DNA of 64,000 nucleotides from an uncultured Candidatus Saccharibacteria bacterium (GTDB lineage Bacteria > Patescibacteriota > UBA1384 > DTJR01), in contig CAZAOT010000002.1 of assembly GCA_964487045.1 (NCBI GenBank), positions 195,511-259,510 of the forward strand, read 5' to 3'. This document shows positions 5,112 to 64,000 of this stretch, one piece after another. The notes beneath the pieces are model-generated. The model ran no database searches, was not told the origin of the DNA, and was given only the letters and a program-made list of their open reading frames with translations. The position numbers and the translations under genes are program-made. Each line of letters starts with the position of its first letter. Position 1 is the first letter of the stretch.

Positions 5112-5142
5112 ATAATAAACATATTAGATTGCTCCTAAAAAG

Positions 5143-5580
5143 CAATGGGCGCTCTTGACCGAAGTCATGAGCACCCTATGTGAACGGTAGCCGATACAAT
5201 GGCTACCAAGGAAGTGTTGGTGAGAGCCTTTCGGATTTTTGGCCGGCCCTCCTAGCCTCAGCGATCATTTTCTCAGGCTGATCGCAAGCAAACACCTGTA
5301 CGCAGTTGGCCGCTGTCTGGGTGCGGCGGCCCGCTCTAGCCACAGTGTGGCTAAAGCACGTGAACTAGCTAGGGATAACCCAACTTTCACTCCTCCTTGA
5401 ATGCTTTGTGCGAAGAACCCGATTGGCCCTTCGCCTCTCTTGCTTTTTTGTATCCCGCGAAAGGGATCAAAAAACCGCGCTTCGGGGCGCGGTTTCTGGG
5501 GGAAAATCATTTTAATGACTGTTACCTCAGAAACCGCCCTCCGATTTGTTTTTTGGAAACAAAAAGGACGCCCATTGGGG
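5143..5580. ncRNA. GC-rich structured non-coding RNA candidate, possibly RNase P RNA (rnpB). Strand and identity unresolved.
   Basis: About 440 nt of strongly GC-enriched non-coding sequence in an AT-rich genome. The two ends are complementary (caatgggcg at 5145-5153 with cgcccattg at 5566-5574). Segments resemble RNase P conserved regions. On plus: GGUGAGAGCC (like GGUAAGAGCGC) and CAGAAACCGCCC or GAAGAACCCGAUUGG (like ACAGAACCCGGCUUA). On minus: GGAGGAGUGAAAGUUGGGUUAUCC (like GGAGGAAAGUCCGGGCUCC). Several stable hairpins are present, including one with a UUCG loop. The 81-, 69- and 64-aa ORFs predicted here are rejected. Confidence 0.4.
5466..5495 (-). terminator. Hairpin (ccgcgc-UUCGgg-gcgcgg) with a T6 run on the minus strand. 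Either an intrinsic terminator or an internal helix of the structured RNA.
   Basis: Perfect 6-bp GC stem with a UUCG-type loop. Read on the minus strand it is followed by TTTTTTGA. Confidence 0.35.
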
Positions 5581-5676
5581 AGTGTGAATTCCTAATTGAT
5601 GTGTAATTATTATTCATAGCAAATTAAAGAATATCTAACTTGTTCTTACCTGTCAATACCAACCTTAGTATTATAT

Positions 5677-5726
5677 CGCAAAAAGCGAGGAAAGTCAAGC
5701 CCAGCCCTCCTTTTGGCAGGCTGGGC
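5677..5726 (-). terminator. Rho-independent terminator downstream of the nucleotidyltransferase gene.
   Basis: 8-bp stem gcccagcc/ggctgggc, followed on the minus strand by a T-rich tract. Lies about 90 nt downstream of the stop at 5818. Confidence 0.5.
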
Positions 5727-5817
5727 GCCGACCCCTCTCTCTAGACCCGAAAACGAACACGAACATATAGTTCGAGTGAGCTATCGAGTTAGAGGGAGCG
5801 GGTCAAGCACATTTATC

Positions 5818-46435: not shown

Positions 46436-49400
46436 TTAGTCCCTTTTCTTGATGAAATAATAGGACAGTCCTCCGATTCCTACAAGTATAATCAAATGCC
46501 ACCATCTCCACCATCCGGCGTTTGAATTTTCAGCTGTATCGCCTTTGACAACTGGGGTTGGCTCGCTTGCCACACTATCTTCTTCCAAGTCTGCCTCTAT
46601 GCTTGAGTCTATATCCTGAGCAATTACAATATTTCCATTTTCTTCCAATAGATTTTCATCTTGTTTATTATCACTAACTTCAACCACTGTACTGGCTTGC
46701 GAAGCTGGCTCGGCACTTGTCTGATTTTCAGAGCTTGTTTCTTCTTCCGCAGGAACTAGCGGCTGCTCGGCTGGCTCTGCAACATAAATATTATTGATCG
46801 TAACAGTTCTAACTGTCTTGTTGCCCGCTTGATCAATAGCTGTGAAGTCAAATGAACCGTTTTTAGTAAATGTGTAAGACGGCTCATTTAATGTTCCTTC
46901 GTTTGTGGTTGCACTCACAATAATACTTTCGGTAGTAGGCTCGGTTGAATAATCGCTTATGGTAATAACTGGGGCAGTATTATCAACATTAATCTCCATT
47001 TCCGAAGTAGTTGTCTTGTTGCCCGCCTTGTCATAAATCACTGACCAAATCTTATGAGTTCCATCTTCAACTTTTGTCGTATCCCAGTCTACAGTATAGG
47101 GAGCGATAAAATCAGTACCGATGAGGGTTGGGGTGCTCGCGTGATAAAATTCGACTTTGTCGATACCGAGACCGTCATCCTCACCGCTTGTCACAAGCGA
47201 TACCAAGGACCTCATATAGCTCCCCGGCTCTATATCATTTATGGATCCCTTCGGAACATTCTTATCTATGTTTTCGATTTTTACTCTTTGGCGAGTCTGG
47301 TTGCCAAGTGAATCTGTAGCAACAAACTCAAATTCTCCGTTTGAAGTAAAGGTGTGCGAAGTGAAGTTCAGTGATCCCTCCTCTACTGATGCATATACTG
47401 TGATATCCTGATTAGTCGGAGTTAGTAAGTATGGAGCGATTGTAAGCTCAGGACCCACTTTGTCTATATTGGTTATAGTAATAGTTCTTGTTGTTACATT
47501 ACCAGCCGGATCAGTGGCTACAAAATCAAAGGTACCGTTTGAAGTAAATGTATAAGAGCTTTGATTTAAACTACCCTCATTTGAGCTTGCAGTAACTACA
47601 ACATCTTCGTTCGTTGGATCAGTCGTATAAGGATCTATTGTTATAACCGGCAGAGTATTATCAACCGAAGTTACAATAGTTGCTGAAGTTTTAACGTTAC
47701 CAGCCTTGTCGTAACCTATCGAGTAAAGATGATAGGCACCATCAGCAACCAACCTCGTATCCCAGTCGATAACATAAGGAGCAAGATTATCTTCAGAAAT
47801 TTTCCCTGTCTCAGTTGAATAGAATTCGACTTTATCTATTCCGCTTTCATTATCATGCACTTCGGCTTGAATAGCGATGGTTTGCTTCACAAAATTAAAA
47901 GGTTCAGGGGAAGTTATTGTAATTCCTTGTGGCTGCACCTTATCGATATTCTCAATAGAAACTATTTTTGAAGTAGTGTTGCCAGCCTCGTCGGTTGCGA
48001 CAAATTCAAATGATCCGTTTTCAGTAAATGTATGAGAGGTTTCATTAAGCCTTCCTTCATCTGTAGATGCGGTAACTACAATATCTTTATTTGTCGGGCC
48101 CTTTTCGTAGTCGCTCAGCGTGATAACCGGAGCCAGCCGGTCAATGTTTGTAATCGTTACTGTCTTTTGCGACTTATTTCCAACTGCGTCTATTGCTTCA
48201 AAATTGAATGAATCGTTTTGCGTGAATGTATATGTAGATTGATTCAGCGTTCCCTCGTTTATAGATGCAGTTACCTCAATATCCTTATTTGTCGGATTTG
48301 TTTCATATGGCAAGATCGTGATTACCGGTGCGGTTTTATCGATATTCGTGATAGTAACTGTTTTTGTTGTTTTATTGCCTGCTTCGTCGGTTGCCTCAAA
48401 ATCAAACGAGCCATTTTCAGTGAATGTATGTGATGTGTGATTAAGAGTTCCTTCGTTTGTCGATGCGTAAACAATTATGTCTTGATTGGTTGGATCTTGA
48501 TTGTATGAATCAATAGTAATAATTGGAGGTGTCGCATCGATTTTGAAATTAACCGAGCTCGTCTGACCGCTAACATTCGTAACCGTAATATTGTAGTCGC
48601 CATCCTCACTAACAGTCACTCCAGAAATTGCCGGCATTCCATTTAGCGACCCAAGACCATTATCCCAAGTAATAGTTTTGGCCGTATTGTAAAGTCCGCC
48701 GTCTTCAACTCCTGAAATAACTGGTGCGTTATAAATTGCTTTGTCGGTAGCGAGATAAATCTTCGAATCTTTAATGTAATAAACGAAGCGATTTGCGCCA
48801 TTGGTTGTAACCGAAGGATTCGATCCTAGGTTATCAATGTTTACCGGCGCTGAAAAACCTTCGCCAAAATTTTCGCTATAGTTCACACCAGAGTTGACAT
48901 ATGCGATTGCGACTGATGAATTGCTGGCGCTTATCGCTGGCGCAGAGCCAGCCACTAAATCGCTAGATACCCAAGCACCTCCGCTTATAAGACCATGTTT
49001 GATACCACCATAGAGCACATGTGCTCTGCCTAAAGCATCTATTGTTAGCGAATTTTTATAAAGTGCATAATTTCCTCCAAGATTGACCGAGGCTCCTGGA
49101 ATATTCGTATGATATTGCAAATCGTATCCTACATCATTTCCATTGGGCCAGCGCCAAATACTTGTATGCCAGAAGAGAAGATGATAATTGTCACTATCAT
49201 CAACAGAAATTGAAATAGGATGTTGGTTATAGTAAGCTGCTCCCCAAGAACCCGAAGACGAGTAATCTCGATAACCATTCCACCCAGCAATATATTCGAA
49301 TGTTCCGTTTATATTTGATGCATAAATAAGATCTATGTTACTATAATCGTCACCTGCATAATAAAAAGTTCTCATAAAGATATGCGCATTGCCGTTTGTG

Positions 49401-49801
49401 TCGGTATCAAGGTCGACATAACTTGCGTCAGTGCCGATGCCAACATTGACCTCGTTATCCCAGTCACCATTAAAAGTCTCATAGATAACCGATCCGGCAT
49501 TAATATATGCAACGTGGGGAACTCCTGAATTATCTATGGAGAGAGCGGGATTTGATCCTGAGCCGATGAGTACTTCAGCGTCTCGATTTTTGGTTAAATA
49601 AATACTTCCCGATCTTTCATATACCACAAATGTATTGCCTGAATTATCAGTAGCTGAATCGATGTTTGACCCAACAGCTATTTCATAATTGTTCGAAAGA
49701 GTGATAGGGTCAGCTGCTTTTGCTTCAAGAAAACCTACTAGTACGATCCCAAGAGAAAACATTGCAAGAACCAATATCGTCATTTTTATTTTAGAAATCA
49801 T
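46436..49801 (-). CDS. Giant cell-surface protein with an N-terminal beta-propeller-like region, about eight tandem ~90-aa Ig-like repeats and a C-terminal TM anchor.
   Basis: 1121 aa with a signal peptide. Repeats of the form ...IDKTAPVITI.PY.TNPTNKDI.VTAS.NEGTLN.S.YTFT.NGSF.F.A.D.AGN.T.KTVTI.NIDK. The C-terminus has an acidic/Ser-rich stalk and a WWRWWHLIILVGIGGLSYYFIKKRD anchor. Confidence 0.7.
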   Translation of the reverse strand: MISKIKMTILVLAMFSLGIVLVGFLEAKAADPITLSNNYEIAVGSNIDSATDNSGNTFVVYERSGSIYLTKNRDAEVLIGSGSNPALSIDNSGVPHVAYINAGSVIYETFNGDWDNEVNVGIGTDASYVDLDTDTNGNAHIFMRTFYYAGDDYSNIDLIYASNINGTFEYIAGWNGYRDYSSSGSWGAAYYNQHPISISVDDSDNYHLLFWHTSIWRWPNGNDVGYDLQYHTNIPGASVNLGGNYALYKNSLTIDALGRAHVLYGGIKHGLISGGAWVSSDLVAGSAPAISASNSSVAIAYVNSGVNYSENFGEGFSAPVNIDNLGSNPSVTTNGANRFVYYIKDSKIYLATDKAIYNAPVISGVEDGGLYNTAKTITWDNGLGSLNGMPAISGVTVSEDGDYNITVTNVSGQTSSVNFKIDATPPIITIDSYNQDPTNQDIIVYASTNEGTLNHTSHTFTENGSFDFEATDEAGNKTTKTVTITNIDKTAPVITILPYETNPTNKDIEVTASINEGTLNQSTYTFTQNDSFNFEAIDAVGNKSQKTVTITNIDRLAPVITLSDYEKGPTNKDIVVTASTDEGRLNETSHTFTENGSFEFVATDEAGNTTSKIVSIENIDKVQPQGITITSPEPFNFVKQTIAIQAEVHDNESGIDKVEFYSTETGKISEDNLAPYVIDWDTRLVADGAYHLYSIGYDKAGNVKTSATIVTSVDNTLPVITIDPYTTDPTNEDVVVTASSNEGSLNQSSYTFTSNGTFDFVATDPAGNVTTRTITITNIDKVGPELTIAPYLLTPTNQDITVYASVEEGSLNFTSHTFTSNGEFEFVATDSLGNQTRQRVKIENIDKNVPKGSINDIEPGSYMRSLVSLVTSGEDDGLGIDKVEFYHASTPTLIGTDFIAPYTVDWDTTKVEDGTHKIWSVIYDKAGNKTTTSEMEINVDNTAPVITISDYSTEPTTESIIVSATTNEGTLNEPSYTFTKNGSFDFTAIDQAGNKTVRTVTINNIYVAEPAEQPLVPAEEETSSENQTSAEPASQASTVVEVSDNKQDENLLEENGNIVIAQDIDSSIEADLEEDSVASEPTPVVKGDTAENSNAGWWRWWHLIILVGIGGLSYYFIKKRD

Positions 49802-50971: not shown

Positions 50972-51706
50972 TTACTGTGCCGTCCAGCCACCGTCTACAT
51001 TTAGTATTTCTCCCGTAATATATTCTGCCTCGTCAGAAGCTAGGTATAAAGCGGCATTGGCAATATCTTCAGGTTTACCGACATATCCCATGGGTGTAGC
51101 TGAAGTAACTAGATTATTGAAATCTTGGCTAGTCAAAGCCTCATCCGTCATGTTAGTTTTAATGAAACCTGGTGCGATACCGTTTACCCTAACTTTTGAA
51201 GTCGCAAGCTCCATAGCTGCAGCCCGAGTCAGCTGAACTGCTCCGCCTTTTGCCGCACAGTAAGCAATTGCACCGTTAAATCCTACTCGGCCGAGTATGG
51301 AGCACATATTAATAATCGAACCTTCAACTTTATTTCTAACCATTGAATTGGCAGCCGCTCGCATAGTCTTAAATACTCCAGATAGATTCACTTCTATAAC
51401 TTTGTTCCAAGTTGAATCATCGGTGTCCAAGACAGTACCCATATTGCCAATGCCTGCATTACAGACAGCAATATCAACTTTTCCGAACTTCTCTTCTGCT
51501 TTTTTAAACAAATCTTCCACCTCATCTGTTTTTGTAACATCACACTTTATAAACGATCGGTGATTTTCTTTTTCCGATAAAAAATCCGGTTTATTTATAT
51601 CGGAATATATGACCTTCGCTCCTTCTTTTGCAAATCTGTCCGCAATTGCTTTGCCAATTCCAGAGTTAGCTCCTGTTACAACTGCCACTTTATCTTTTAG
51701 ACGCAT
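50972..51706 (-). CDS. SDR-family oxidoreductase (FabG-like 3-oxoacyl-ACP reductase).
   Basis: TGANSGIGKAIA Rossmann motif, NAG motif (CNAGIG), catalytic S...YxxxK (YCAAKGG). Confidence 0.85.
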   Translation of the reverse strand: MRLKDKVAVVTGANSGIGKAIADRFAKEGAKVIYSDINKPDFLSEKENHRSFIKCDVTKTDEVEDLFKKAEEKFGKVDIAVCNAGIGNMGTVLDTDDSTWNKVIEVNLSGVFKTMRAAANSMVRNKVEGSIINMCSILGRVGFNGAIAYCAAKGGAVQLTRAAAMELATSKVRVNGIAPGFIKTNMTDEALTSQDFNNLVTSATPMGYVGKPEDIANAALYLASDEAEYITGEILNVDGGWTAQ

Positions 51707-51817
51707 AGAACCTCCTTTATTTTGAATATATACCCATAATATAAGAAATATTTTTTAAGTCAATAACCTTTTTTTTCGCCTACAAATTCGGATATAGTCA
51801 CTAAGCTTGAAATGGCA

Positions 51818-51846
51818 TTGAAAAAAACTCTTTTTCAGGGTAAAAT
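51818..51846 (+). promoter_or_regulatory. Sigma70-like promoter TTGAAA-17-TAAAAT driving the tRNA-Pro/Gly/Arg cluster.
   Basis: TTGAAA at 51818-51823, a 17-nt spacer, TAAAAT at 51841-51846. tRNA-Pro begins 14 nt downstream. Confidence 0.55.
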
Positions 51847-51859
51847 ATCAAAGATGGAA

Positions 51860-51935
51860 CGGGGCGTGGCTCAATTGGTAGAGTGCCGGCTTTGGGAGCC
51901 GGAGGTTCCGAGTTCGAGTCTCGGCGCCCCGACCA
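51860..51935 (+). tRNA. tRNA-Pro(TGG).
   Basis: Acceptor CGGGGCG/CGCCCCG. Anticodon stem CCGGC/GCCGG with loop TTTGGGA (anticodon TGG). T-arm CCGAG-TTCGAGT-CTCGG. CCA is encoded. Confidence 0.8.
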
Positions 51936-52010
51936 AACTTCATTCCTTCGGAATTTCGCTTGGCGAGCCAGATCATTTGCGGGCCCGCCCTGCCGAAGCT
52001 TTAAGCGAAG

Positions 52011-52085
52011 GCGGGTATAGTATAGTGGTTATTATGCGAGTTTTCCAAACTCGAGATGCGGGTTCGATTCCCGCTACCCGCTCCA
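52011..52085 (+). tRNA. tRNA-Gly(TCC).
   Basis: Acceptor GCGGGTA/TACCCGC. Anticodon stem CGAGT/ACTCG with loop TTTCCAA (anticodon TCC). T-arm GCGGG-TTCGATT-CCCGC. CCA is encoded. The D-stem is weak (3 bp). Confidence 0.7.
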
Positions 52086-52130
52086 GAAAAAATTACTCAG
52101 TAATTTTTGAGGTGGAGCGATCGGGAATTG

Positions 52131-52215
52131 AAAGGCGGAGGCCGACGGGCCGAGCCGGGGTCGAGCGCGATTTCAGCAGAAATCGACGCGTGACCGATTC
52201 CCGCTACCCGCTCCA
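52131..52215 (+). repeat. Conserved tRNA-associated element, copy 3 of 3. Ends with a 21-nt duplicate of the tRNA-Gly 3' end.
   Basis: aaaggcggaggccgacgggccgagccggggtcgagcg-cgatttcagcagaaatcg-acgcgtgaccgattcccgctacccgctcca. The last 21 nt repeat 52065-52085. The 152-aa ORF predicted across this tRNA region is rejected. Confidence 0.55.
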
Positions 52216-52231
52216 AAAAAGAAGGAAATAT

Positions 52232-52308
52232 GCGCCCTTAGCTCAGATGGATAGAGCGACTCCCTTCTAAGGAGTAGGTCGCAGGTTCGAATCCTGCAGG
52301 GCGTACCA
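52232..52308 (+). tRNA. tRNA-Arg(TCT).
   Basis: Acceptor GCGCCCT/AGGGCGT (G1-U72). Anticodon stem ACTCC/GGAGT with loop CTTCTAA (anticodon TCT). T-arm GCAGG-TTCGAAT-CCTGC. CCA is encoded. Confidence 0.8.
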
Positions 52309-52426
52309 GATAAGTTGGTTCTAGGCGACCGGAATGCCGTCATCGCCAAAAATCAACAGGTTGGCATCAAAAATAAAAAAATGGCTTGAAGCCATTTTTT
52401 TATTTTGCCCTCTGCTGGAATCGAAC

Positions 52427-53773
52427 CTAACGAATTACCGAGATCTTCTTATCTTTCAAACTCATCTTAATTTTCAAACAGTTTAGGAGTTCTCGTTTTT
52501 CTTCACGAGACCCCTCACGAAGTACGAACTTTGAGTAATCTCTTAGATCCACTTTATTTTCTAAGTCCCTACTGACTTTCTGCTTTAATATTTTTGACAT
52601 AAATCTTTCATATCGTTCAATCTCGCTGTTGAGATGTTTTTGAGTGTTTAACGAATCGATATTGACTTGATCGATAATTTCACAAATTTGATCGGTCACA
52701 TCTTCTTCGCGAATGTAGGGCTGTTTACAGTCGCGATCTTTTCCACCAGTGCAATGATAGTAGACATATCTTCGAATTACTCCGTTGTCTTGCCGTTTGA
52801 ACTTCTCTTCGGCCGTCACGCCAGAACCACATACACCGCAGTAAATTAACTTAGTGAAATCGAATTCTTTGGTTCCTGGACGAGATTTAGGAATAATTGC
52901 CAATCTTGCCTGAACTTTATCAAATAGTTCCTTGGTAATGATCGATTCATGTCCGGCTTGATACCAAACGCCCGATCCCTTTGGATATTCGAAAGAGCCG
53001 TAATAATAATGATTGTTTAAAATTGCATAAACCGAGCTCAACACAACTAACCGACCTTGTCTGCTCCTAAAATCTATTGAGTTAAGCCAGCCGAGTACTG
53101 TTCTACCGCTTTCCCCATGGGAAACCCTTTCAAATATTTCTTTAATTATCGGAGCTCTTTCAGGATCTAAGAATATTTTCTTATAGCCTTTTTTACCACC
53201 AATTTCATTCAAGTAACCAAGCGGTGGAGCGCATGGTCTAAATCCCATCTCACATTTGGCCTTGAGCCCTCTTTTTACGTTAATGACTTTATTATCATTT
53301 TCTAACTTTGCCTGGCTTCCTAGAATCATCAACAAGAATTTATCGTTCGGTGAATTTGTAAACGTCTGATTAATTGTTCTGATTTCCAATAAATAATTCT
53401 GGTCCATCAGATCTACTAAAGTACCGAGATCGCCCGCGTTCCTACTTAAACGGTCTGGAGCCCAAGCAAGGATACCTTGAATTTTGTCTTCTCTAATATC
53501 TTTGATAATCGACATAAAAACAGGCCGTTCGCCTGAATTCTTTGCTGAATGACTTTCTTTTCTTATGTCAGCCACCTCCAAACCGTCTCTATCAGCAACC
53601 GTTAGCATTTCTTTCAACTGAGAATCAATCGACAAGGCTTGCAATTCGTCCCTCTCTGTCGATTTTCTTGCGTAAAGACAGAACTTGATCTTCTTATTTC
53701 CGGGCAATGTAGCTTCCATAGCAGAGAGGAAGGTACCGCAAGTGTTAGTTAAGTCAAGCAAAAACCCTTCCAT
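52427..53773 (-). CDS. Large serine recombinase (integrase) adjacent to the tRNA cluster.
   Basis: 448 aa. Resolvase catalytic domain (CLYARKSTERDELQALSIDSQ...DRLSRN), a recombinase domain and a zinc ribbon (CGVCGSGVTAE...YVYYHC). Confidence 0.85.
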   Translation of the reverse strand: MEGFLLDLTNTCGTFLSAMEATLPGNKKIKFCLYARKSTERDELQALSIDSQLKEMLTVADRDGLEVADIRKESHSAKNSGERPVFMSIIKDIREDKIQGILAWAPDRLSRNAGDLGTLVDLMDQNYLLEIRTINQTFTNSPNDKFLLMILGSQAKLENDNKVINVKRGLKAKCEMGFRPCAPPLGYLNEIGGKKGYKKIFLDPERAPIIKEIFERVSHGESGRTVLGWLNSIDFRSRQGRLVVLSSVYAILNNHYYYGSFEYPKGSGVWYQAGHESIITKELFDKVQARLAIIPKSRPGTKEFDFTKLIYCGVCGSGVTAEEKFKRQDNGVIRRYVYYHCTGGKDRDCKQPYIREEDVTDQICEIIDQVNIDSLNTQKHLNSEIERYERFMSKILKQKVSRDLENKVDLRDYSKFVLREGSREEKRELLNCLKIKMSLKDKKISVIR

Positions 53774-53840
53774 ACCTGTTAGCTTGGTGCTATGATTGAG
53801 CTAAATTGGTGTGATTCTTTATTAAAATTCAGAAAATTAA

Positions 53841-55328
53841 ATGACTAAGATAGAGCTATCCAAATTAGAACAACATATCTCAAAAGCTGCATGGATATTA
53901 AAGGGTCCAGTAGATGCTGCCGATTTCAAGGTTTATATTTTTCCTTTACTTTTCTTCAAACGAATTTCTGATGTCTATGATGAAGAATATATTCATATGC
54001 TCGAAGAATCTGGTGGCGACGATAGTTATGCCAAACTTGAGGAATTTCATCGTTTTGTAATTCCAGATGACTGCCACTGGGAAGATGTTCGATCAAAAAC
54101 CGTAAATGTCGGGCAAGCCCTTCAGTATGCATTCCGCGAGATCGAGAAGGCTAATCAGAAGTTTCTCTATGGTATCTTCGGTGACGCTCAATGGTCAAAT
54201 AAAGAAAAGCTTTCCGATAGCTTACTGATAGACCTGATAGAGCATTTCTCAAAAGTAAACCTCTCCACATCGAATGTAGATTCCGATATTCTTGGCCAAT
54301 CATACGAGTACCTTATCAAACAATTCGCTGATTTGACGAATAAAAAAGCAGGAGAATTCTATACACCACGTTCGGTTGTGCATCTGATGGGTAGAATAAT
54401 AGATCCAAAAGAAGGTGAATCAATCTACGATCCTGCGTGTGGTACCGGAGGGATGCTCCTGGAATGTGTAGAAGATCTCCGAAGAGAAAACAAAGATCCA
54501 AGAACTTTGAAAATATACGGGCAAGAAAAGAATTTGACTACCGCCTCGATAGCTCGGATAAATATGTTTTTACATGGCGTAGAAGATTTTAAAATAGTCC
54601 GTGGCGATACTCTTAGGAATCCTGCATTTTATGATGGCGATCAACTAGCCACATTCGATTGCGTAATAGCTAATCCACCATTCTCACTTAAAAAATGGGG
54701 TGATGATCTATGGATTAAGGACCCTTATGGAAGGAATTTTGCCGGGGTGCCACCGACTGGAAACGGCGATCTCGCTTGGGTTCAACATATGATTAAATCC
54801 ATGGCATTTCCACACGGAAGAATTGCAGTTGTATTGCCTCATGGCGCACTATTTAGAAAGGGTCGTGAAGGAGAAATTCGCAAGGCTATTCTAAAAATGG
54901 ATATTTTAAAAGCTGTGATTGGTCTTGGACCCAATATTTTTTATGGGGCTGGTATATCTGCATCAATCCTTATTTTTAAGGCAAACAAATCCGTAGATGA
55001 GAAAGGCAAAGTATTATTTATTGACGCATCCGATCAAATTCGGGTTGGGCGGGCTCAAAACTATTTGGAAGAAAAACATTCAAATCAAATTTATGATTGG
55101 TATTCAAATTTTGCAGAAGTTAAGAATAGTGTGCATTGCGCCACATTAGAGGAAATAGAAAAGAATGATTTCTCTCTGAACATACCATTATATGTAGAGA
55201 AAATTGTTGAAGACGATCTACCTTCAATTGATGAGGCGACTAATCAGCTGAAAGCATCAATGGATGAAATGTGGAAGGCAGAAGACAAGCTAAAAGAATT
55301 GCTTAAGGAATTTTCTTTGATGGAATAA
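53841..55328 (+). CDS. hsdM: Type I restriction-modification system methyltransferase subunit HsdM (copy 1).
   Basis: HsdM N-terminal domain, SAM motif I (DPACGTGGML) and catalytic motif IV NPPFS. 495 aa. Confidence 0.85.
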   Translation: MTKIELSKLEQHISKAAWILKGPVDAADFKVYIFPLLFFKRISDVYDEEYIHMLEESGGDDSYAKLEEFHRFVIPDDCHWEDVRSKTVNVGQALQYAFREIEKANQKFLYGIFGDAQWSNKEKLSDSLLIDLIEHFSKVNLSTSNVDSDILGQSYEYLIKQFADLTNKKAGEFYTPRSVVHLMGRIIDPKEGESIYDPACGTGGMLLECVEDLRRENKDPRTLKIYGQEKNLTTASIARINMFLHGVEDFKIVRGDTLRNPAFYDGDQLATFDCVIANPPFSLKKWGDDLWIKDPYGRNFAGVPPTGNGDLAWVQHMIKSMAFPHGRIAVVLPHGALFRKGREGEIRKAILKMDILKAVIGLGPNIFYGAGISASILIFKANKSVDEKGKVLFIDASDQIRVGRAQNYLEEKHSNQIYDWYSNFAEVKNSVHCATLEEIEKNDFSLNIPLYVEKIVEDDLPSIDEATNQLKASMDEMWKAEDKLKELLKEFSLME

Positions 55329-55330
55329 TT

Positions 55331-56794
55331 ATGGCTATAAAGCAACAAGCATTAGAAAAATATCTTTGGGGAGCAGCGACTTTGCTTCGTGGTGTTATCG
55401 ATGCCGGAGATTATAAGCAATACATCTTTCCTCTACTTTTCTATAAAAGAATATGTGATGTATATGACGAAGAAACCGCTACAGCCTTAGAAGAATTCGG
55501 GGGTGATTTTGCAGAAAATCATCGTTTCAAGGTTCCGAAAAATTCACATTGGAATGATGTCCGTCAGATTACGGTGAATGTTGGACAAGCGCTACATACT
55601 GCCTTGAGAGAAATCGAAAAAGCTAACCAAGATATGCTCTATGGGATATTTGGTGATGCATCTTGGACGAACAAAGATCGCCTTTCGGATGAAATTTTAA
55701 TAAATATACTCGAGCATTTTTCTGAACAAAATCTAAGTGTAGCGAACGTTCCCAACGATGAGTTGGGCGATGCCTATGAATTTTTGATTAAAAAGTTTGC
55801 AGATGATAGCGGTCACACAGCAGCTGAATTTTATACAAACCGAACCGTGGTTCATTTAATGACTTTAATAATGGACCCACAGCCAGGTGAAAGCATTTAT
55901 GATCCGACATGCGGTTCAGGCGGACTATTACTTAATTGTGTAAATCATTTGAAAGAACGAGGTAAAGAATTCAGAACACTCAAGCTGTACGGACAAGAAC
56001 TAAATCTTATGACCTCGTCTATCGCTCGTATGAATATGTTCCTGCATGGGATCGAGGATTTTCAGATTGTTAGGGGGGACACGCTTGCCCAACCTAAGTT
56101 CCTTGAGAATGACCAGCTTAAAACATTTGATGTCATTCTGGCTAATCCACCTTACTCAATTAAAAGATGGAATCGTGATGCATGGACCAAGGATCCATAT
56201 GGCAGAAATATTTACGGAACACCACCACAAGGTTGTGCTGACTATGCTTTTGAGCAGCATATTCTTAAGAGCTCAAATATAGAGCGAGGTAGAAGCGTTG
56301 TTCTTTGGCCACATGGAGTTCTCTTTCGGAATACCGAACAAGTATTTCGTGAAAAGATGCTAAAAGACGATATTGTAGATGCGGTGATTGGTCTTGGGCC
56401 GAACCTATTCTATAATTCGCCGATGGAATCCTGCTTACTGGTCTGCAGAAGTAACAAACCCGAAGAACGTAAAGGTAAGGTAATTTTTATAAACGCCGTT
56501 AATGACGTCACTAGACAGAATGCCTTTTCTTATTTAGAAGATGAGTCCATTCAAAAAATCTATAATGCCTACAAAGCTTTTGAAGATATTAATGGATTCG
56601 CCAAAGTTATTGACAATGATGCAATTATTTCAAATAAATCAAATCTGAGTATACCCCTTTATGTTTCACAAATTTCTTCAACGGAGGAGCAAAAAGATGT
56701 TATGGAAGTCGTTAAAGAATGGGCTGAAAGCAGCAAAAAGTTAAAAAAGAGTGCCGAGGAACTTTTTCAGATGATCGAAAAGGAGTTGATATGA
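55331..56794 (+). CDS. hsdM: Type I restriction-modification system methyltransferase subunit HsdM (copy 2, divergent paralogue).
   Basis: Same architecture as copy 1: YIFPLLFYKRICDVYDEE, motif I DPTCGSGGLL, motif IV NPPYS. Roughly half the residues are identical to copy 1 by eye. Starts 3 bp after the copy 1 stop. Confidence 0.85.
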   Translation: MAIKQQALEKYLWGAATLLRGVIDAGDYKQYIFPLLFYKRICDVYDEETATALEEFGGDFAENHRFKVPKNSHWNDVRQITVNVGQALHTALREIEKANQDMLYGIFGDASWTNKDRLSDEILINILEHFSEQNLSVANVPNDELGDAYEFLIKKFADDSGHTAAEFYTNRTVVHLMTLIMDPQPGESIYDPTCGSGGLLLNCVNHLKERGKEFRTLKLYGQELNLMTSSIARMNMFLHGIEDFQIVRGDTLAQPKFLENDQLKTFDVILANPPYSIKRWNRDAWTKDPYGRNIYGTPPQGCADYAFEQHILKSSNIERGRSVVLWPHGVLFRNTEQVFREKMLKDDIVDAVIGLGPNLFYNSPMESCLLVCRSNKPEERKGKVIFINAVNDVTRQNAFSYLEDESIQKIYNAYKAFEDINGFAKVIDNDAIISNKSNLSIPLYVSQISSTEEQKDVMEVVKEWAESSKKLKKSAEELFQMIEKELI

Positions 56795-57942
56795 TGGCAG
56801 CCGAATCACAAATAAAAAATATCTTGAATAATGAGGATAAATCTACTTGGGATTTGGTGTCTTTTGGCGATGTAGCAAGGGAACCGAGAGAATCGATCTC
56901 AAATCTTGAAGAAAGTCAAGTAAAACGGTTTGTCGGCCTAGAGCATATTAGTCCCAAGGATATTCACATCAGGTCATGGGGCGATGTTTCCGATGGAACT
57001 ACTTTCACCAGATCATTTAAAAAAGGGCAGGTGCTTTTCGGTAAAAGACGTGCCTATCAAGGCAAGGCTGCTTTAGCGGACTTTGACGGAGTTTGTTCTG
57101 GCGACATATTAGTTCTCGAGGCAAATGAAGAAAAAATGGAGCCAGGGTTATTGCCATTCTTAGTACATAGCGAAGGTTTTTATAATTGGGCCGTAAGCAC
57201 TTCTGCGGGATCACTTTCTCCTCGTACAAAATTCAAAGATTTATCTCGATACGAATTCCGGCTTCCGCCACGACTTCTTCAGAAGCAAATGGTGCGAATA
57301 CTGTGGGCTATCGATGAGGCTGAGAGTGGGTATATTAAGTTCTGTGAATCATTGAAATCAATGAAGAAGGCACTTTTCCAATTCTTCACCAGAGAAGCCG
57401 AACCAAAAAAAAGACTTGGAGAGTGTCTTATTCTTTCAAAAAAGAAGAGTGCATATCCTCACGAGGAAAAGTATTATTTAGGATTGGAGAATATCGATTC
57501 AGGGGCTTATGTTACAAATAGATCTATAGACGCGAAAGCAGTAAAATCAACCTGTAATATTTTCACAAAAGGTCAATTGCTTTACAGTAAACTTAGGCCC
57601 AATCTGGATAAAGCGATCATCTCAAGTTTTGAAGGTATTTGTACAACCGAGCTTCTTGTCTATGATGCCAAAGATAACAATAATTTGTATTACATTCTTA
57701 ATTTCTTACACTCAGATGATTTTATCCATTATGCAACTTCAAGAAGTTTCGGTACTAAAATGCCAAGGACATCACACGAGATTATTTCTGAATATTTGAT
57801 TTACGCTCCCACTGGCAAAGAACAAGAAGAGATATTAGAACAATTTTCCAAGATAAACGAATTAGAAGAAAGCTCTAAATCTCTGTTACGTAAGATAAAT
57901 CAGATAAAAACATCAATTATAAGTAAGGGGTTTAACAAATGA
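56791..57942 (+). CDS. hsdS: Type I restriction-modification specificity subunit HsdS.
   Basis: 383 aa with two target-recognition-domain halves separated by conserved helical spacers. Overlaps the stops/starts of the flanking hsdM and hsdR. Confidence 0.75.
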   Translation: MMAAESQIKNILNNEDKSTWDLVSFGDVAREPRESISNLEESQVKRFVGLEHISPKDIHIRSWGDVSDGTTFTRSFKKGQVLFGKRRAYQGKAALADFDGVCSGDILVLEANEEKMEPGLLPFLVHSEGFYNWAVSTSAGSLSPRTKFKDLSRYEFRLPPRLLQKQMVRILWAIDEAESGYIKFCESLKSMKKALFQFFTREAEPKKRLGECLILSKKKSAYPHEEKYYLGLENIDSGAYVTNRSIDAKAVKSTCNIFTKGQLLYSKLRPNLDKAIISSFEGICTTELLVYDAKDNNNLYYILNFLHSDDFIHYATSRSFGTKMPRTSHEIISEYLIYAPTGKEQEEILEQFSKINELEESSKSLLRKINQIKTSIISKGFNK

Positions 57943-60911
57943 CATTTAATGAACTAAATACAACAGAACACTTTATTCTGAATGAATTAGCTGGGATCAG
58001 CTTGGAGCAGCTTAAGGATGAGAATTATCGTGCTTCCGAGTCAGCCTTTCAGCCCGGTTCTGGGCAGTGGATTTATGCACCGTATAACCAATTGAAAAGA
58101 GAATTTTCGGATGTGCTTATTGAGTCTTTGCTCAAGGATGCACTTGTTCGGCTAAATCCCGACATTGCGACAAACCCTGCAAGAGCAGATGAAGTAATAT
58201 ATAAATTACGTGCCATTCTAATATCTGTTGGTAACTCTGGGTTGGTTCGAGCGAATGAGGAATTTTCAGCGTGGTTGCGGGGCGATAAGAGCATGCCATT
58301 TGGTGAAAATAATCAGCATGTAAGTATTAACCTGATCGATTTTGAAAATCCAAAGAACAATACATATATTGTTACAAATCAATACACTGTAAAAGGATCA
58401 GCTGAAAAGCGACCAGATATGGTTATGCTGGTGAATGGAATTCCTCTTGTTACAGCTGAATTCAAAACTCCGGTTCGTCCGGCAATCTCATGGCTTGATG
58501 GCGCAATTGATATCCACGATGATTATGAGAATACGATTCCTCAATTATTTGTCCCGAATGTATTTTCTTTTTCAACGGAGGGTAAAACATTTCGTTATGG
58601 TTCAGTAAGAATGCCACTTGAACTTTGGGGTCCTTGGCGCAATCAAGCCGCAAGCAGCTCGGGTTTATCAGAAATCAAACAAGCTCTGAACGGTTTGCTC
58701 AAACCAGAGAACATGCTTGATATGCTACAGAACTTCACTTTATTTGCTACGGACAACAAGAAACAGAGAATTAAGATTATCGCTCGATATCAGCAATTCG
58801 AAGGTGCAAATATGATTGTTGAACGAGTAAAAGCTGGTAAGCCTAAAAAAGGTCTTATTTGGCATTTTCAGGGTTCTGGTAAATCTTTGTTGATGGTTTT
58901 TGCGGCACAGAAATTGCGTCGTAGCCCAGAGCTGAAGAGCCCAACTGTACTCATTGTCGTAGACCGTGTTGATCTAGATACTCAAATCACAGGAACCTTT
59001 AATGCTACCGATGTGCCAAATGTAATATCCACCGATAATAGGTCAGAGCTTCAGGAGTTGCTTAGCAAAGACACAAGAAAAATTATCATCACAACTATTT
59101 TTAAGTTTGCAGAAGCGGATGGAGTTTTGAACGATAGAGAGAATATCATTGCGCTCGTTGATGAGGCTCATCGTACCCAAGAAGGTGATCTGGGAAGAAA
59201 GATGCGTGACGCCTTACCAAATGCGTTTCTTTTTGGTCTAACTGGAACCCCTATTAACAAATCTGATCGTAATACTTTTTGGGCTTTTGGCGCCGAAGAG
59301 GATGAACAAGGTTACATGTCGAGATACACATTCCAAGATTCGATTCGCGATAATGCCACGCTCCCACTTCATTTTGAACCACGGTTGCTCGAAGTTCATG
59401 TTGAAAAAGATTTGATTGATGCAGAATTCGATCTGATAACTGAGCATTTATCTGAGACCGATAGGACTAATCTCGTCAAAAAAGCGGCGCAAATGTCAGC
59501 GTTTCTTAAATCCCCAGCTCGTGTCCACATGATAGTAAAGGATATAGTTAACCACTTTAATACTAAAGTCGATCCATTCGCATTTAAAGCACAAATTGTC
59601 ACGCCTGATCGAGCTGCCTGCGATCAATATAAACAGGAACTTGATAAATTGTTACCTCCTGAAGCAAGTGCCGTTGTTATTTCAACTGGTGGCAAGGGTG
59701 AGTCAGATACCGATCTTAAGCAAAAATATTACATTACCAAAGAAGAACAGGAAAAATTACTCGATAATTTTAGAGATCCTCAGCATCCATTAAAGTTCTT
59801 AATTGTGACTGCAAAGCTCCTGACTGGCTTTGACGCACCTATTCTTCAATGTATGTATCTCGATAAAGCCCTTAAAGATCATAATTTATTGCAGGCAATC
59901 TGCCGAACAAACCGTGTTTATAAAGATAAAACGCATGGTTTAGTGGTTGACTACTTTGGTGTGTTTGATGATGTTGCAAAAGCTCTTGAGTTTGATGACG
60001 CTAGCGTCCGCTTGGTAATCACTGATATCAACGAGATTAAAAGTAAGCTGCAACAACTCATCGACCAGTGCCTTTCTCATTTTGGTGAAGTTGATCGTTC
60101 GGTTGAAGGTTACGAAGGACTGTTGCTTGCTCAGGATTGCCTAAATACCGACGAGAAAAGGGATGAATTCGCCGCTGACTATAGTTTGTTATCTAGAGCA
60201 TGGGAAGCGTTATCTCCCGACCCAATTTTGAATAAGTTTCAAAAAGAATATTCTTGGTTATCTCAGGTTTACGAATCGGTTAGGCCAGCATCGGGTGATA
60301 CAGGGAGGTTGTTGTGGCATGCGCTTGGTGCCCAGACGATGAAACTTGTACATGATCATATCCAAGTTCAGCGGGTCAATGATGATTTAGAAGAGATAGT
60401 CCTTGATGCTCAAGTTGTTGAGGATTTGATGAAAAAAGGAAACGAGAAAAATATCAAGCTCATTGAACTAGAGATTAGTAAAAGACTTAGTGGTCACGGA
60501 AATGATCCTAAGTTTGTGGCCTTGGGCATTCGGCTGGAGGAATTGCGGGACAGGGCTGAAAGGGGTTTGATTAACAGTGTTGAGTTTCTAAAAGATCTTA
60601 TTCAGATCGCGAAAGATACAGTGCAACTTGAGAACAAGTTGGATCCACAAGAGAAGAAAGACACTGCTAAGACCGCCCTCACAGAATTGTTCTTGGAGAT
60701 GAAAACAGAACAAACTCCCGCGATAGTAGAGAGAATTGTAAATGACATTGACGAAATAGTAAAGATTGTGCGTTTCCCTGGTTGGCAAAGTACGGCAGCA
60801 GGCGAAAGAGAAGTTAAACAGGCTCTCCGCAAGACGCTCTATAAGTATTCTCTGCACAAAGACAATATTTTATTCGATCGATCCTACGAATATATAAGGC
60901 AGTATTACTAA
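57939..60911 (+). CDS. hsdR: Type I restriction enzyme R subunit HsdR.
   Basis: 990 aa. N-terminal nuclease domain, SF2 helicase motifs (GSGKS, DEAH within LVDEAHRTQEG, QAICRTNR) and a C-terminal helical domain. Confidence 0.9.
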   Translation: MTFNELNTTEHFILNELAGISLEQLKDENYRASESAFQPGSGQWIYAPYNQLKREFSDVLIESLLKDALVRLNPDIATNPARADEVIYKLRAILISVGNSGLVRANEEFSAWLRGDKSMPFGENNQHVSINLIDFENPKNNTYIVTNQYTVKGSAEKRPDMVMLVNGIPLVTAEFKTPVRPAISWLDGAIDIHDDYENTIPQLFVPNVFSFSTEGKTFRYGSVRMPLELWGPWRNQAASSSGLSEIKQALNGLLKPENMLDMLQNFTLFATDNKKQRIKIIARYQQFEGANMIVERVKAGKPKKGLIWHFQGSGKSLLMVFAAQKLRRSPELKSPTVLIVVDRVDLDTQITGTFNATDVPNVISTDNRSELQELLSKDTRKIIITTIFKFAEADGVLNDRENIIALVDEAHRTQEGDLGRKMRDALPNAFLFGLTGTPINKSDRNTFWAFGAEEDEQGYMSRYTFQDSIRDNATLPLHFEPRLLEVHVEKDLIDAEFDLITEHLSETDRTNLVKKAAQMSAFLKSPARVHMIVKDIVNHFNTKVDPFAFKAQIVTPDRAACDQYKQELDKLLPPEASAVVISTGGKGESDTDLKQKYYITKEEQEKLLDNFRDPQHPLKFLIVTAKLLTGFDAPILQCMYLDKALKDHNLLQAICRTNRVYKDKTHGLVVDYFGVFDDVAKALEFDDASVRLVITDINEIKSKLQQLIDQCLSHFGEVDRSVEGYEGLLLAQDCLNTDEKRDEFAADYSLLSRAWEALSPDPILNKFQKEYSWLSQVYESVRPASGDTGRLLWHALGAQTMKLVHDHIQVQRVNDDLEEIVLDAQVVEDLMKKGNEKNIKLIELEISKRLSGHGNDPKFVALGIRLEELRDRAERGLINSVEFLKDLIQIAKDTVQLENKLDPQEKKDTAKTALTELFLEMKTEQTPAIVERIVNDIDEIVKIVRFPGWQSTAAGEREVKQALRKTLYKYSLHKDNILFDRSYEYIRQYY

Positions 60912-60920
60912 ATTAACCTT

Positions 60921-62480
60921 ATGAAACTTCTATTAGCTGGTCCCGGTACAGGTAAAACGACTAAGATAAAGGAGATGTTGACATCTCACTCCAATCTGGA
61001 TAGGGTGTTAGTTTTGTCTTTCACGAATGCTACAGTCCAAGATCTGATCCAAAGCTTTGCTGAAGATGGAATCGATATTACAGACCGTAATTGCCAGACA
61101 CTGCATAAATATGCATTGAGGCTGAATCATCAAAAAAATTTGCATATCCTAAATTCCGTTGAGGAAGATTGTCTTGGTTTTTATTCGAAAAAGTTCAATA
61201 TAGCTTTCCGCGATTTGTGTCGCGTGTTGGGGTGTATAACATTCGATCAAATGATTGTCCAAACAACGGCATATATTCAATCTAACCCAGCGTATCTTAA
61301 TGACCTTATTGGAGAAATAGATTTATTGATTGTCGATGAATATCAAGATTTTAACCAAACTGAAAGAGGTCTTATTTCATTAATTTCACAAAATGCAAAT
61401 GATTCCATCATATTAGGTGATGACGATCAATGCATATATGATTTTAAAGATGCAGATGCAGACGGAATAATGCAATTATATAACGACAGTGATGTCGAAA
61501 ATTTAGATCATCACAATGTCTGCTACCGTTGTCCGGACTGTGTTATTGACGCTTCTACTTCTCTTATTCAAAATAATCAACGGAGAGTCGCTAAGAATTG
61601 GATCAAAAATGGTAAAGAGGGTCAGCTTACATTTTGTCAATTTAGAACTCGGGATGAAGAGGCTGATTACATAATCAAAGAGATAGCATCCATTAAAAGT
61701 AACGACCCCAATTCAAGCATTATGGTTCTTTCGTCAGTAGGGTTTGCGCTAGATATAATTCATGACCAGCTCATCGAAAAAAACATTGAATTTGCTAATC
61801 TTTGCAGCCAAAAAATAGATCTAGAGAGCTTGAAAAAGCTTTGGGAAGTCAGGGCTATTCTAGGTAGTAAGAAAATACTGAATTTGCTATTTTTAATATT
61901 CCCTGGCATAAAAGGCAGTAAAAAATTATTAGCTGCACTAGCAACGAAGATGGGCGATACCTTAAGTGTCGAGACTATCGTAGACTTTATTGAGAATAAC
62001 AAGCTCATTGATTTTGATCTCCTCGAGTCGATAAAAAAAGGTCGATCTCTACAGGATCTGGTAAATGAATCTCAATATCTATTCCTGGCAGAACACCTGA
62101 ATGAATCAAAACTCGAGAGTGATTTAGAAAAGATCTCGCAGCTCATAACGGAGCCTGTATCTTTTGACCAAAATGGTATAAATCTTCTTTCCATCCATAA
62201 GTCAAAAGGCTTACAAGCGGAAAATGTGTTCATCGTCGGAGCAGTTGAAGGAATATTGCCCAATGTTCTTAGGGGGTTAGACAGTATTGAAATGCAAAGA
62301 AGATTACTTTTCGTTGGTATGAGTCGTTCCAAATCTAAACTCTATATTACATCAGCGATTGAATGGGACGGGAAATATGTAAATAAGTCAGACAAGGCTC
62401 AGTTTAAGTTTGACTTTAGATCTAGAAAGTATCTAGGCCGTGCATCTACATTTATATCAGAACTTAATTTACCGCAATGA
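60921..62480 (+). CDS. Short UvrD/PcrA-like superfamily-1 helicase (519 aa). Candidate defence-associated helicase.
   Basis: Motif I AGPGTGKTT, motif II LIVDEYQDFN, motif VI-like SIHKSKGLQAENVFIVG. It lacks the long accessory domains of UvrD. Starts 10 bp after hsdR and overlaps the next gene by 4 bp. Confidence 0.75.
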   Translation: MKLLLAGPGTGKTTKIKEMLTSHSNLDRVLVLSFTNATVQDLIQSFAEDGIDITDRNCQTLHKYALRLNHQKNLHILNSVEEDCLGFYSKKFNIAFRDLCRVLGCITFDQMIVQTTAYIQSNPAYLNDLIGEIDLLIVDEYQDFNQTERGLISLISQNANDSIILGDDDQCIYDFKDADADGIMQLYNDSDVENLDHHNVCYRCPDCVIDASTSLIQNNQRRVAKNWIKNGKEGQLTFCQFRTRDEEADYIIKEIASIKSNDPNSSIMVLSSVGFALDIIHDQLIEKNIEFANLCSQKIDLESLKKLWEVRAILGSKKILNLLFLIFPGIKGSKKLLAALATKMGDTLSVETIVDFIENNKLIDFDLLESIKKGRSLQDLVNESQYLFLAEHLNESKLESDLEKISQLITEPVSFDQNGINLLSIHKSKGLQAENVFIVGAVEGILPNVLRGLDSIEMQRRLLFVGMSRSKSKLYITSAIEWDGKYVNKSDKAQFKFDFRSRKYLGRASTFISELNLPQ

Positions 62481-63199
62481 ACTATCGTCTAATTGCAATT
62501 CAAATTGGAGATATGCTGAAATATGACTCAACCGTTAACGACATTAATCGCGCCGCCCAATCAGTATTTAGTTTCAAATGCGACACATTCCCGAATGAAT
62601 CGATTACTTCTGTCCGAGCTCAATCGATTTTCGACTGGGTGATGTCGCTCGCAAGGCAAAGAATGGACAATGATGAGCGAAATGCGAGATTGCTTCAATT
62701 TATCGAATTGATCACTCCTGAATCTTTCAAAGACGCAATTAACAAAATATTAGATCAAGGCGGGCTTCTAACTCAGTCGGCAGTATCAAAAAATGACTTT
62801 CACAGCAGAAACTTTCACTCAGAGATTAATAAACATTGTTTGAAGTTATTTTCTCAGGGTAATTATTTTCATTCAGTCTTTGAGGCAGCAAAAGTGTTCA
62901 ATAAAAAAGTTCAGGAGAAAGCCAAGAGTGTAAAAGATGGTCAAGCTTTGATGATGGAGGCTTGGACGAGTTCGGGAGTATTAAAACTGACGCGTTGTGA
63001 AAGTGAAACCGATAAAAATGTTCAAGAGGGAGTCAAGTTTCTTTCGGCGGGACTGATGCAAGCGTTACGAAATCCAACTGCGCATGAACCGGCACTGGAT
63101 TGGCCAATATCCAAAGAAGATTGCCTGGATATGCTTAGTTTTATTTCGTATCTTCTAAGGCAATTGGATAAAGCAGTGTTTTTTAAGCAAGAGAAATGA
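62477..63199 (+). CDS. TIGR02391 (Hypoth_Ymh) family protein, a defence-island-associated domain.
   Basis: The C-terminal half (...FHSVFEAAKVFNKKVQEKA...GQALMMEAW...QEGVKFLSAGLMQALRNPTAHEP...DCLDMLSFISYLLRQLD) matches my recollection of the TIGR02391/Ymh pattern (F..A.K.LE...G..LM..AF...EQ.G...L..G....RNP.AH). Translationally coupled on both sides. Confidence 0.6.
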   Translation: MNYRLIAIQIGDMLKYDSTVNDINRAAQSVFSFKCDTFPNESITSVRAQSIFDWVMSLARQRMDNDERNARLLQFIELITPESFKDAINKILDQGGLLTQSAVSKNDFHSRNFHSEINKHCLKLFSQGNYFHSVFEAAKVFNKKVQEKAKSVKDGQALMMEAWTSSGVLKLTRCESETDKNVQEGVKFLSAGLMQALRNPTAHEPALDWPISKEDCLDMLSFISYLLRQLDKAVFFKQEK

Positions 63200-63993
63200 A
63201 ACTGAATTATCTTTTTGACTCAAATGCCGTACTAGTACAAGATGAGAATCCAAATGAAATTCACGACTTATACACCTTTAATTTTTTAGGAGAAAAAATC
63301 ATCTGGAAGGCTCAAAAGCCCGGGCGGGAGGTCGTCCTAGAGTTAGTTCTGCGTAACCAGAACTTTAAGAAGAAGATTGAGAAAATTCTAAAATTTGCGT
63401 CACTTGTTGTATATAGGGACAGCCATGTGGATAGCTTTAGATACTTGTTTCACGTGAACGCTAATGTAGGTCGATTACCAAGTCAGGCCGGACTAGAAAC
63501 TAGATTTATCGTTATTGGTAACGAGCCATTATTCACAAACAAAATGTGGTCTATGCTATCTTTTTATCTTGAGGCTAAAAATTCCACAAGTTTTTATTAT
63601 AAGTTTATTTGTTTGTATAAAATTATAGAGATTGATAATTTGCGGAATGAAAAACGAAATGGAAAAAAAATTCTAGTTGAAGATTCGCAAGCAACACAAA
63701 AGTATATCGAAATGGAAATAAGCAATATTCTAACCCGACAAGAGCTTGATGAACTCAATAGAGAGGTTGAATCAACAATGCTGAAAAATAAAAATATCGG
63801 AGAATATTTTAAGCATTTATTTCGTGATGCATTTGCTCACACCGGATACTTGACCAGAAACGATTATAAATTCGGTTATCCTACGATGAATCCGACAAAT
63901 TTTGATGATTATTTAAGATACCAGAAAGCCGTCAACTGGTTTGATGAAATAGCCAAGAGAGCAGTAAGAAAGAACGAGCCGAAACTAGCATGA
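63196..63993 (+). CDS. Hypothetical protein, third gene of the helicase-Ymh operon.
   Basis: 265-aa ORF whose start overlaps the upstream stop (ATGA). Another ATG at 63990 overlaps its stop, so the operon continues past the window. No family recognised. Confidence 0.5.
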   Translation: MKLNYLFDSNAVLVQDENPNEIHDLYTFNFLGEKIIWKAQKPGREVVLELVLRNQNFKKKIEKILKFASLVVYRDSHVDSFRYLFHVNANVGRLPSQAGLETRFIVIGNEPLFTNKMWSMLSFYLEAKNSTSFYYKFICLYKIIEIDNLRNEKRNGKKILVEDSQATQKYIEMEISNILTRQELDELNREVESTMLKNKNIGEYFKHLFRDAFAHTGYLTRNDYKFGYPTMNPTNFDDYLRYQKAVNWFDEIAKRAVRKNEPKLA

Positions 63994-64000
63994 ATTATCT

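Follow-up and report, generated by a model that had tools for sequence, protein, structure and literature searches.

A 64-kb stretch of DNA from an uncultured Candidatus Saccharibacteria bacterium (contig CAZAOT010000002.1, positions 195,511 to 259,510; hereinafter the window) carries a Type I restriction–modification (RM) locus in which two different hsdM genes, hsdM1 and hsdM2, precede an hsdS and an hsdR gene. Judged from their sequences, the two hsdM genes very probably encode the M1 and M2 subunits of a PacII-type system, which makes both N4-methylcytosine (m4C) and N6-methyladenine (m6A), and the locus would be an ordinary member of this known class.

Classical Type I systems (families IA–IE, e.g., EcoKI and EcoR124I) have one hsdM and a homodimeric M2S1 methylase that places m6A on both strands. 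The window proteins share with them the HsdM, HsdS and HsdR folds and domains, an S subunit with two target-recognition domains (TRDs) and an ATP-dependent HsdR. However, a classical single-hsdM system (M2S1R2) is ruled out by the presence of two distinct, conserved M paralogues with group-specific residues.

The four genes are co-directional, in the order M1-M2-S-R (Table 1). A sequence-only reading of this DNA had described two full-length HsdM paralogues lying head to tail with a 3-bp gap. The open reading frames (ORFs) lie where that reading placed them, and the HsdM_N and N6_Mtase domains are complete in the two M proteins (Pfam E 3e-99 and 6e-86), but the actual gap is 2 bp (TAA-tt-ATG). 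hsdM2 and hsdS overlap by 4 bp (ATGA), as do hsdS and hsdR. A promoter and terminator scan of positions 52300–64000 found no excess over shuffled sequence (27 versus 32.6 expected, and 9 versus 8.9); therefore, the operon structure rests only on the overlaps and short gaps. Source records give the two M genes no more specific a name than Type I M protein or DNA methyltransferase, and the exact window proteins are also on record in Logan assemblies of runs SRR11845623-25.

The same reading held that both M proteins keep motif I and the NPP(F/Y) motif and that they are not a recent identical duplication, and both statements are borne out. Specifically, motif I is DPACGTGG in M1 and DPTCGSGG in M2, motif IV is NPPF in M1 and NPPY in M2, and pairwise alignment over 488 aa gives 51% identity and 69% similarity. 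The NPPF/NPPY difference, the significance of which had been missed, is the diagnostic mark of the two-M class. Neither M protein has an inactivated S-adenosylmethionine (SAM)-binding or catalytic motif or belongs to a different enzyme family, the two findings that the sequence-only reading had named as contrary to its proposal.

Ten two-M Type I systems have been characterised; their m6A is the product of the NPPF subunit (M1) and their m4C that of the NPPY subunit (M2) (Morgan et al. 2016, PMC5100572). In this class the gene for the NPPF subunit lies upstream of that for the NPPY subunit, the latter lies beside hsdS, and hsdR is downstream; REBASE already listed more than 300 such systems in 2016 (PMC5100572). 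The M subunits are 45–55% identical to each other, a range that includes the 51% measured here, and the cytosine-reading TRD1 is unusually conserved, with m4C placed at the TRD1 half-site in all ten systems (PMC5100572). Adjacent to the flipped base, M2 has a bulky loop, Asn-Ser-Pro-Met-Glu (NSPME), where M1 has small residues (PMC5100572). The structure of the PacII M1M2S complex (7VRU, 7VS4) shows AGEF and NPPF in M1, AAEF and NPPY in M2, and an arginine peculiar to M2, R29, in a stacking contact with the target adenine (Zhu et al. 2022, PMC9613975). The heteromeric methylase that the sequence-only reading offered as one of its options is thus an established M1M2S m4C/m6A class.

The two window proteins match the two PacII subunits in the expected order. 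The best PDB match of M1 is PacII M1 (7VRU_A, 546 bits), followed by PacII M2 (7VRU_B, 499 bits), and the best match of M2 is PacII M2 (7VRU_B, 638 bits), followed by PacII M1 (7VRU_A, 467 bits). The next-best structures for both are classical single-M HsdMs, at 223 bits or less. Compared with each other, M1 and M2 score about 500 bits, above any single-M HsdM of known structure.

The marks of each subunit are also present. M1 contains AGEFYTPR, NPPF (54672–54683) and a small-residue loop, GAGIS, at residues 369–373, where PacII M1 has GTAIP. M2 contains AAEFYTNR, NPPY (56144–56155) and the NSPME loop at residues 362–366 (56414–56428), and its R20 (55388–55390) is the equivalent of PacII R29, with K21 at the matching position of M1. 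In an alignment of 14 M2 homologues, R20, AAEFYTN, NPPY and NSPME are invariant; therefore, the Pro-to-Asn change in 'FYTP' is a family hallmark and not a defect. The residues mutated or discussed in the PacII structure paper (PMC9613975) were mapped onto the window proteins. Of 25 mapped PacII M2 residues of the pocket, the DNA-backbone contacts and the M1–M2 interface, 22 are kept, among them D33, D36, K38, R130, K167, K168, H175, F180, S289, K291, R346 and F373 (PacII numbering); K15, D19 and R410 are not kept, with R410 replaced by Asn. For M1, 12 of 16 mapped residues are kept, including D25, E170, F171, R252, S280, R336 and R401.

Other assignments of these proteins were considered and rejected. 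For MADS, the scores are 81 and 58 bits on MAD2 (NCBIfam cut-off 720) and 28 bits on MAD5 (cut-off 400). Readings of the methyltransferases as BREX PglX or as Type IIG enzymes also give scores far under the family cut-offs.

The arrangement and the subunit-specific residues are conserved among relatives. A scan of species-representative genomes returned at least 568 stretches encoding M2 relatives; the best 80 loci were analysed, with ORFs called and classified against the window proteins. These 80 loci span Bacteroidota, Gamma- and Deltaproteobacteria, Planctomycetota, Verrucomicrobiota, Chloroflexota and candidate-phyla bacteria, and the closest M2 homologues named in source records are from Candidatus Pacebacteria, Moranbacteria and Lloydbacteria, names by which the host, unlike that of PacII, appears to be Patescibacteria-like. 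A same-strand M1 gene lies upstream of M2 in all 72 loci with at least 1.6 kb of upstream sequence, and its product has NPPF in 70 of these. An hsdS gene lies downstream of M2 in 78 of the 80 loci, within 100 bp of it in 70, and hsdR was found in 63 loci within the sequence covered. M1 and M2 are directly adjacent, as in the window, in 19 of 74 loci; extra ORFs intervene in the others, as described previously (PMC5100572).

Joint alignment of the M proteins resolves two clean groups, with mean identities of 73% and 71% within groups and 50% between them. Mean identities to the M1 and M2 groups are 68% and 48%, respectively, for window M1, and 51% and 65% for window M2. At 20 discriminating columns, defined as at least 95% conserved within each group and differing between groups, the expected group residue is present at 19 in window M1 and at all 20 in window M2.

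HsdS is likewise related to its PacII counterpart (whole-protein E 1.8e-38). Specifically, residues 19–251 align with residues 9–238 of PacII S (7VRU_C), a segment that comprises the CCC-reading TRD1 and the central helix. Averaged over 70 related S proteins, identity to the window protein is 44% in TRD1 and 22% in TRD2; TRD1 is thus about twice as conserved as TRD2, matching the published description of cytosine TRDs. Window TRD1 keeps PacII R75, R76, Y78, Q79 and K81, and has Asp in place of PacII H94; R75, R76 and H94 are base-contacting residues in PacII. Of the 70 related S proteins, 34 have His and 30 have Asp at the H94 position, within a local sequence of 'CSAH' or 'CSGD', and by this sequence criterion window TRD1 belongs to a common second TRD1 class, the 'CSGD' type. 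The Asp weakly suggests a cytosine half-site other than CCC. The text of the two papers (PMC5100572, PMC9613975) does not state which base His94 contacts, and the strains of the characterised CCC, GCC and TCY systems are not among the best 80 loci that were compared.

HsdR appears complete. It scores 543 bits on TIGR00348 hsdR (cut-off 285), contains the nuclease motif PD...E.K (residue 159), Walker A GSGKS (312) and DEAH (408), and is full length, with relatives of about 988 aa.

PacII, from Pseudomonas alcaligenes NEB585, founded the class of two-M Type I systems and has the same set of M1, M2, S and R genes and the same M1 and M2 marks as the window. The two systems also share an identity of about 50% between M1 and M2, C-terminal tails on both M subunits, a homologous TRD1 and an intact HsdR. 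The identities between the two systems are moderate, at 52.5% for M1, 58.4% for M2 and 43.5% for TRD1. They differ in gene order: the S and R genes of PacII lie between its two M genes, whereas hsdM1 and hsdM2 are directly adjacent in the window. The recognition sequence should differ as well, because window TRD1 has Asp at the position of His94 and window TRD2 is unrelated to that of PacII. The nine other characterised systems, namely DbaKI, PcaI, BceNI, Mma5219I, Apa12260I, Asu14238II, Pme5I, Sen483I and Dac11109IV, have the same architecture as the window locus and recognise bipartite targets in which the cytosine half-site is CCC, GCC or TCY (PMC5100572). The half-site is CCC for PacII, BceNI, Pme5I and Sen483I, GCC for DbaKI, PcaI, Apa12260I and Asu14238II, and TCY for Mma5219I.

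The characterised homologues suggest how the system would act. PacII M1 binds S first and then recruits M2, and PacII M2 in the absence of M1 neither binds S nor methylates (PMC5100572, PMC9613975). By homology, window M1 (NPPF) would bind HsdS first through its C-terminal helix, and M2 (NPPY) would then be recruited, giving an asymmetric methyltransferase clamp of one M1, one M2 and S. TRD1 would read a short cytosine-containing half-site and hand the flipped cytosine to M2, producing m4C, while TRD2 would read an adenine-containing half-site and hand the adenine of the opposite strand to M1, producing m6A. With HsdR bound, unmethylated bipartite sites would trigger ATP-driven translocation and cleavage at a distance. 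The heterotrimer, the m4C and m6A chemistry and the restriction activity are all inferred from the characterised homologues.

Several points weigh against this assignment or narrow what it predicts. The m4C and m6A modification and the restriction predicted for this organism derive from homology. Two base-contact positions, H94 of S and R410 of M2, differ from PacII, with Asp and Asn, respectively; both positions vary among relatives, and the changes probably reflect a different target sequence and not a loss of function. In addition, PacII M2 also methylates adenine in vitro after the target base is swapped (PMC9613975), so the M2 sequence by itself does not determine which base is modified at the TRD1 half-site.

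That dual activity, together with the H94-to-Asp difference in TRD1, is what could favour a heterotrimeric M1M2S in which both half-sites contain adenine, M2 acts as a second m6A methyltransferase and m4C is not made. We regard this as improbable, because m4C at the TRD1 half-site is common to every one of the ten characterised two-M systems (PMC5100572), window TRD1 and the cytosine TRD of PacII belong to one conserved family, many relatives share the Asp variant, and the NSPME loop, which is proposed to narrow the M2 pocket for cytosine, is intact. The sequence-only reading had also raised the option that the second M serves a different S. In that case hsdM2 would partner an orphan hsdS elsewhere, and two independent M2S methylases would share one R; the window, which covers 64 kb of a contig of about 283 kb, leaves room for such a gene. 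However, the window has no hsdS or hsdM other than those of this locus, hsdM2 is translationally coupled to the local hsdS by their 4-bp overlap, M1 co-occurs with M2 in all 72 of the related loci in which it could be scored, and PacII M2 is inert without M1, all of which make the option very improbable.

Equally slight is the chance that the locus is a fortuitous juxtaposition or hybrid of two Type I systems, as that reading had further suggested, or a decaying duplicate. The presence of two M genes fits this explanation, and nothing else does. There is one S and one R only, neither M gene is truncated or has lost a SAM-binding or catalytic motif, and each M protein resembles the other more than it does any single-M HsdM of known structure. 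Moreover, the two-gene arrangement and the group-specific residues are kept in all the bacterial groups listed above. The assignment of hsdM1 and hsdM2 to the M1 and M2 subunits of a PacII-type system is thus preferred.

Table 1. Features of the RM locus and of the surrounding island (window coordinates)
Feature	Position	Strand	Description
tRNA-Pro(TGG), tRNA-Gly(TCC), tRNA-Arg(TCT) cluster	51860-52308	+	ARAGORN; left flank of island
Large serine recombinase	52427-53773	-	Pfam Resolvase + Recombinase + Zn_ribbon_recom; PHROG integrase E 2e-65; divergent from hsdM1
hsdM1	53841-55328	+	495 aa; predicted M1-type (adenine, m6A) modification subunit; Pfam HsdM_N + N6_Mtase
hsdM2	55331-56794	+	487 aa; predicted M2-type (cytosine, m4C) modification subunit; Pfam HsdM_N + N6_Mtase
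hsdS	56791-57942	+	383 aa; specificity subunit, two TRDs; Pfam Methylase_S, two stretches
hsdR	57939-60911	+	990 aa; restriction/translocase subunit; Pfam HSDR_N, SWI2_SNF2, ResIII, T1R_D3-like
UvrD-like superfamily 1 (SF1) helicase	60921-62480	+	519 aa; Pfam UvrD-helicase, UvrD_C; starts 9 bp past hsdR
Hypoth_Ymh protein	62477-63199	+	Pfam PF09509 E 4e-33; PD-Lambda-3_B-like E 2e-25
MauJ-like protein	63196-63993	+	Pfam PF17419 E 3e-11

The RM genes lie between a tRNA cluster and recombinase on the left and a helicase, a Ymh-family gene and a MauJ-like gene on the right, these three being tightly coupled downstream of hsdR (Table 1). The integrase that the sequence-only reading placed beside the locus is confirmed as a large serine recombinase, and from its sequence it is the probable integrase of an island that carries the RM cassette. 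Homologous recombinases (46–54% identical) occupy the same place beside M1M2SR operons in two candidate-phyla loci (L003 and L051). In L051 about 200 bp separate the recombinase gene, at its 3' end, from a tRNA-Asn, and in L002 a tRNA-Arg(TCT) adjoins hsdM1. A second large serine recombinase, 27% identical to the first, lies about 15 kb upstream in the window (36714–38264).

The UvrD-like helicase is absent beside the RM genes in 79 of the 80 related loci, a distribution that places it in the variable portion of the island; it is no conserved partner of M1M2SR systems. PADLOC matches it to GajB (E 2e-40), but Gabija was rejected because no GajA is present among the neighbouring genes scanned.

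Comparison with a related locus, L089, points to a slot for exchangeable cassettes. L089 keeps the recombinase up to window position 53792 (84% DNA identity; window 52427–53792 against L089 1–901) and keeps the Ymh, MauJ-like and zinc-ribbon genes from position 62478 (89% DNA identity; window 62478–64000 against L089 9283–10804). Between these flanks, in place of M1-M2-S-R and the helicase, it has a PLD/SNF2 helicase, an Eco57I/TaqI_C-type methyltransferase and a UvrD-like helicase. The UvrD-like helicases at the corresponding place of the two loci are only 25% identical and unrelated. Shared flanks around a different cassette therefore mark 53793–62477 (about 8.7 kb) as an exchangeable slot in a conserved island scaffold, in which the Type I cassette itself may be exchangeable.

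The right-hand end of the island falls past the end of the window. On a contig that overlaps the window end (L082), the next gene (4670–5770) overlaps the MauJ-like gene by 4 bp and encodes a 366-aa multi-zinc-ribbon protein with several CxxC pairs. This protein has no match in Pfam or PADLOC and is 86% identical to its counterpart in L089.

A search for attachment-site repeats over 51700–64000 gave no convincing island boundary; only a copy of the tRNA-Gly 3' end and an 18-nt palindrome were found, and there is no GC anomaly over the island. The copy (52185–52220) lies between tRNA-Gly and tRNA-Arg, matches the tRNA-Gly 3' end (52055–52090) at 86% and may be a scar of an earlier integration. 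The palindrome (52370–52406), between tRNA-Arg and the 3' end of the recombinase gene, is a perfect 18-nt inverted repeat (AAAATAAAAAAATGGCTT a AAGCCATTTTTTTATTTT) that may act as a bidirectional terminator or belong to an attachment site. The suggestion of a composite defence island in the sequence-only reading thus holds in part, favoured by the tRNA cluster, the recombinase and the swapped cassette of L089 and not by attachment repeats or a shift in composition.

The MauJ-like gene (PF17419) is rare: among 5.8 billion proteins, its homologues at E<1e-5 number only 16. It stands last, with a 4-bp overlap, in an RM or defence operon both in the window and in three of the four other contexts examined, and these operons differ in type. 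Specifically, the operon is Type I in the window and in L087 (10001–10792), HpaII with Vsr in L085 (10001–10795), and a PLD-helicase with an MmeI-like methyltransferase in L084 (10001–10798); the fourth context, L088, is not an RM operon. The gene directly upstream of it also varies (Ymh/HEPN-like, HNH or unknowns).

A wider interpretation, which we put forward only tentatively and consider rather doubtful as a whole, would join these features. M1-M2-S-R would be an exchangeable cassette in a defence-island scaffold of candidate-phyla bacteria with the serine recombinase at its left; the conserved Ymh/HEPN-like, MauJ-like and multi-zinc-ribbon genes would together constitute a defence or addiction module, so far undescribed, that accompanies RM systems of various kinds; and the Asp variant of TRD1 would specify an uncharacterised cytosine half-site.

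Elsewhere in the window, on the minus strand at 46436–49801, is a gene for a protein of 1121 aa. The protein begins with a signal-like segment, has a transmembrane segment at its C-terminus and contains at least six tandem copies of a repeat of about 90 aa with the pattern 'D.Y...PTN.DI.V.AS.NEG.LN...TFT.NG.F.F.A.D.AGN....TVTI.NIDK'. From these sequence features it looks like a cell-surface protein.

Two-M Type I systems have been known since 2016, have a crystal structure and are widespread, and the window locus is a typical member. Its importance beyond correct annotation is small, and what novelty there is, itself mild, lies in the TRD1 class and in the island, where cassettes are swapped and a MauJ-like tail gene recurs. 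The exchange of RM cassettes within conserved flanks illustrates, in a modest way, the spread of RM systems among small-genome bacteria, and the locus adds a further, uncharacterised TRD1/TRD2 pair to a family used in engineering m4C specificities. For the host, the locus predicts DNA with m4C plus m6A at a bipartite motif, which would be relevant to methylome binning of metagenomes and to attempts to transform such bacteria.

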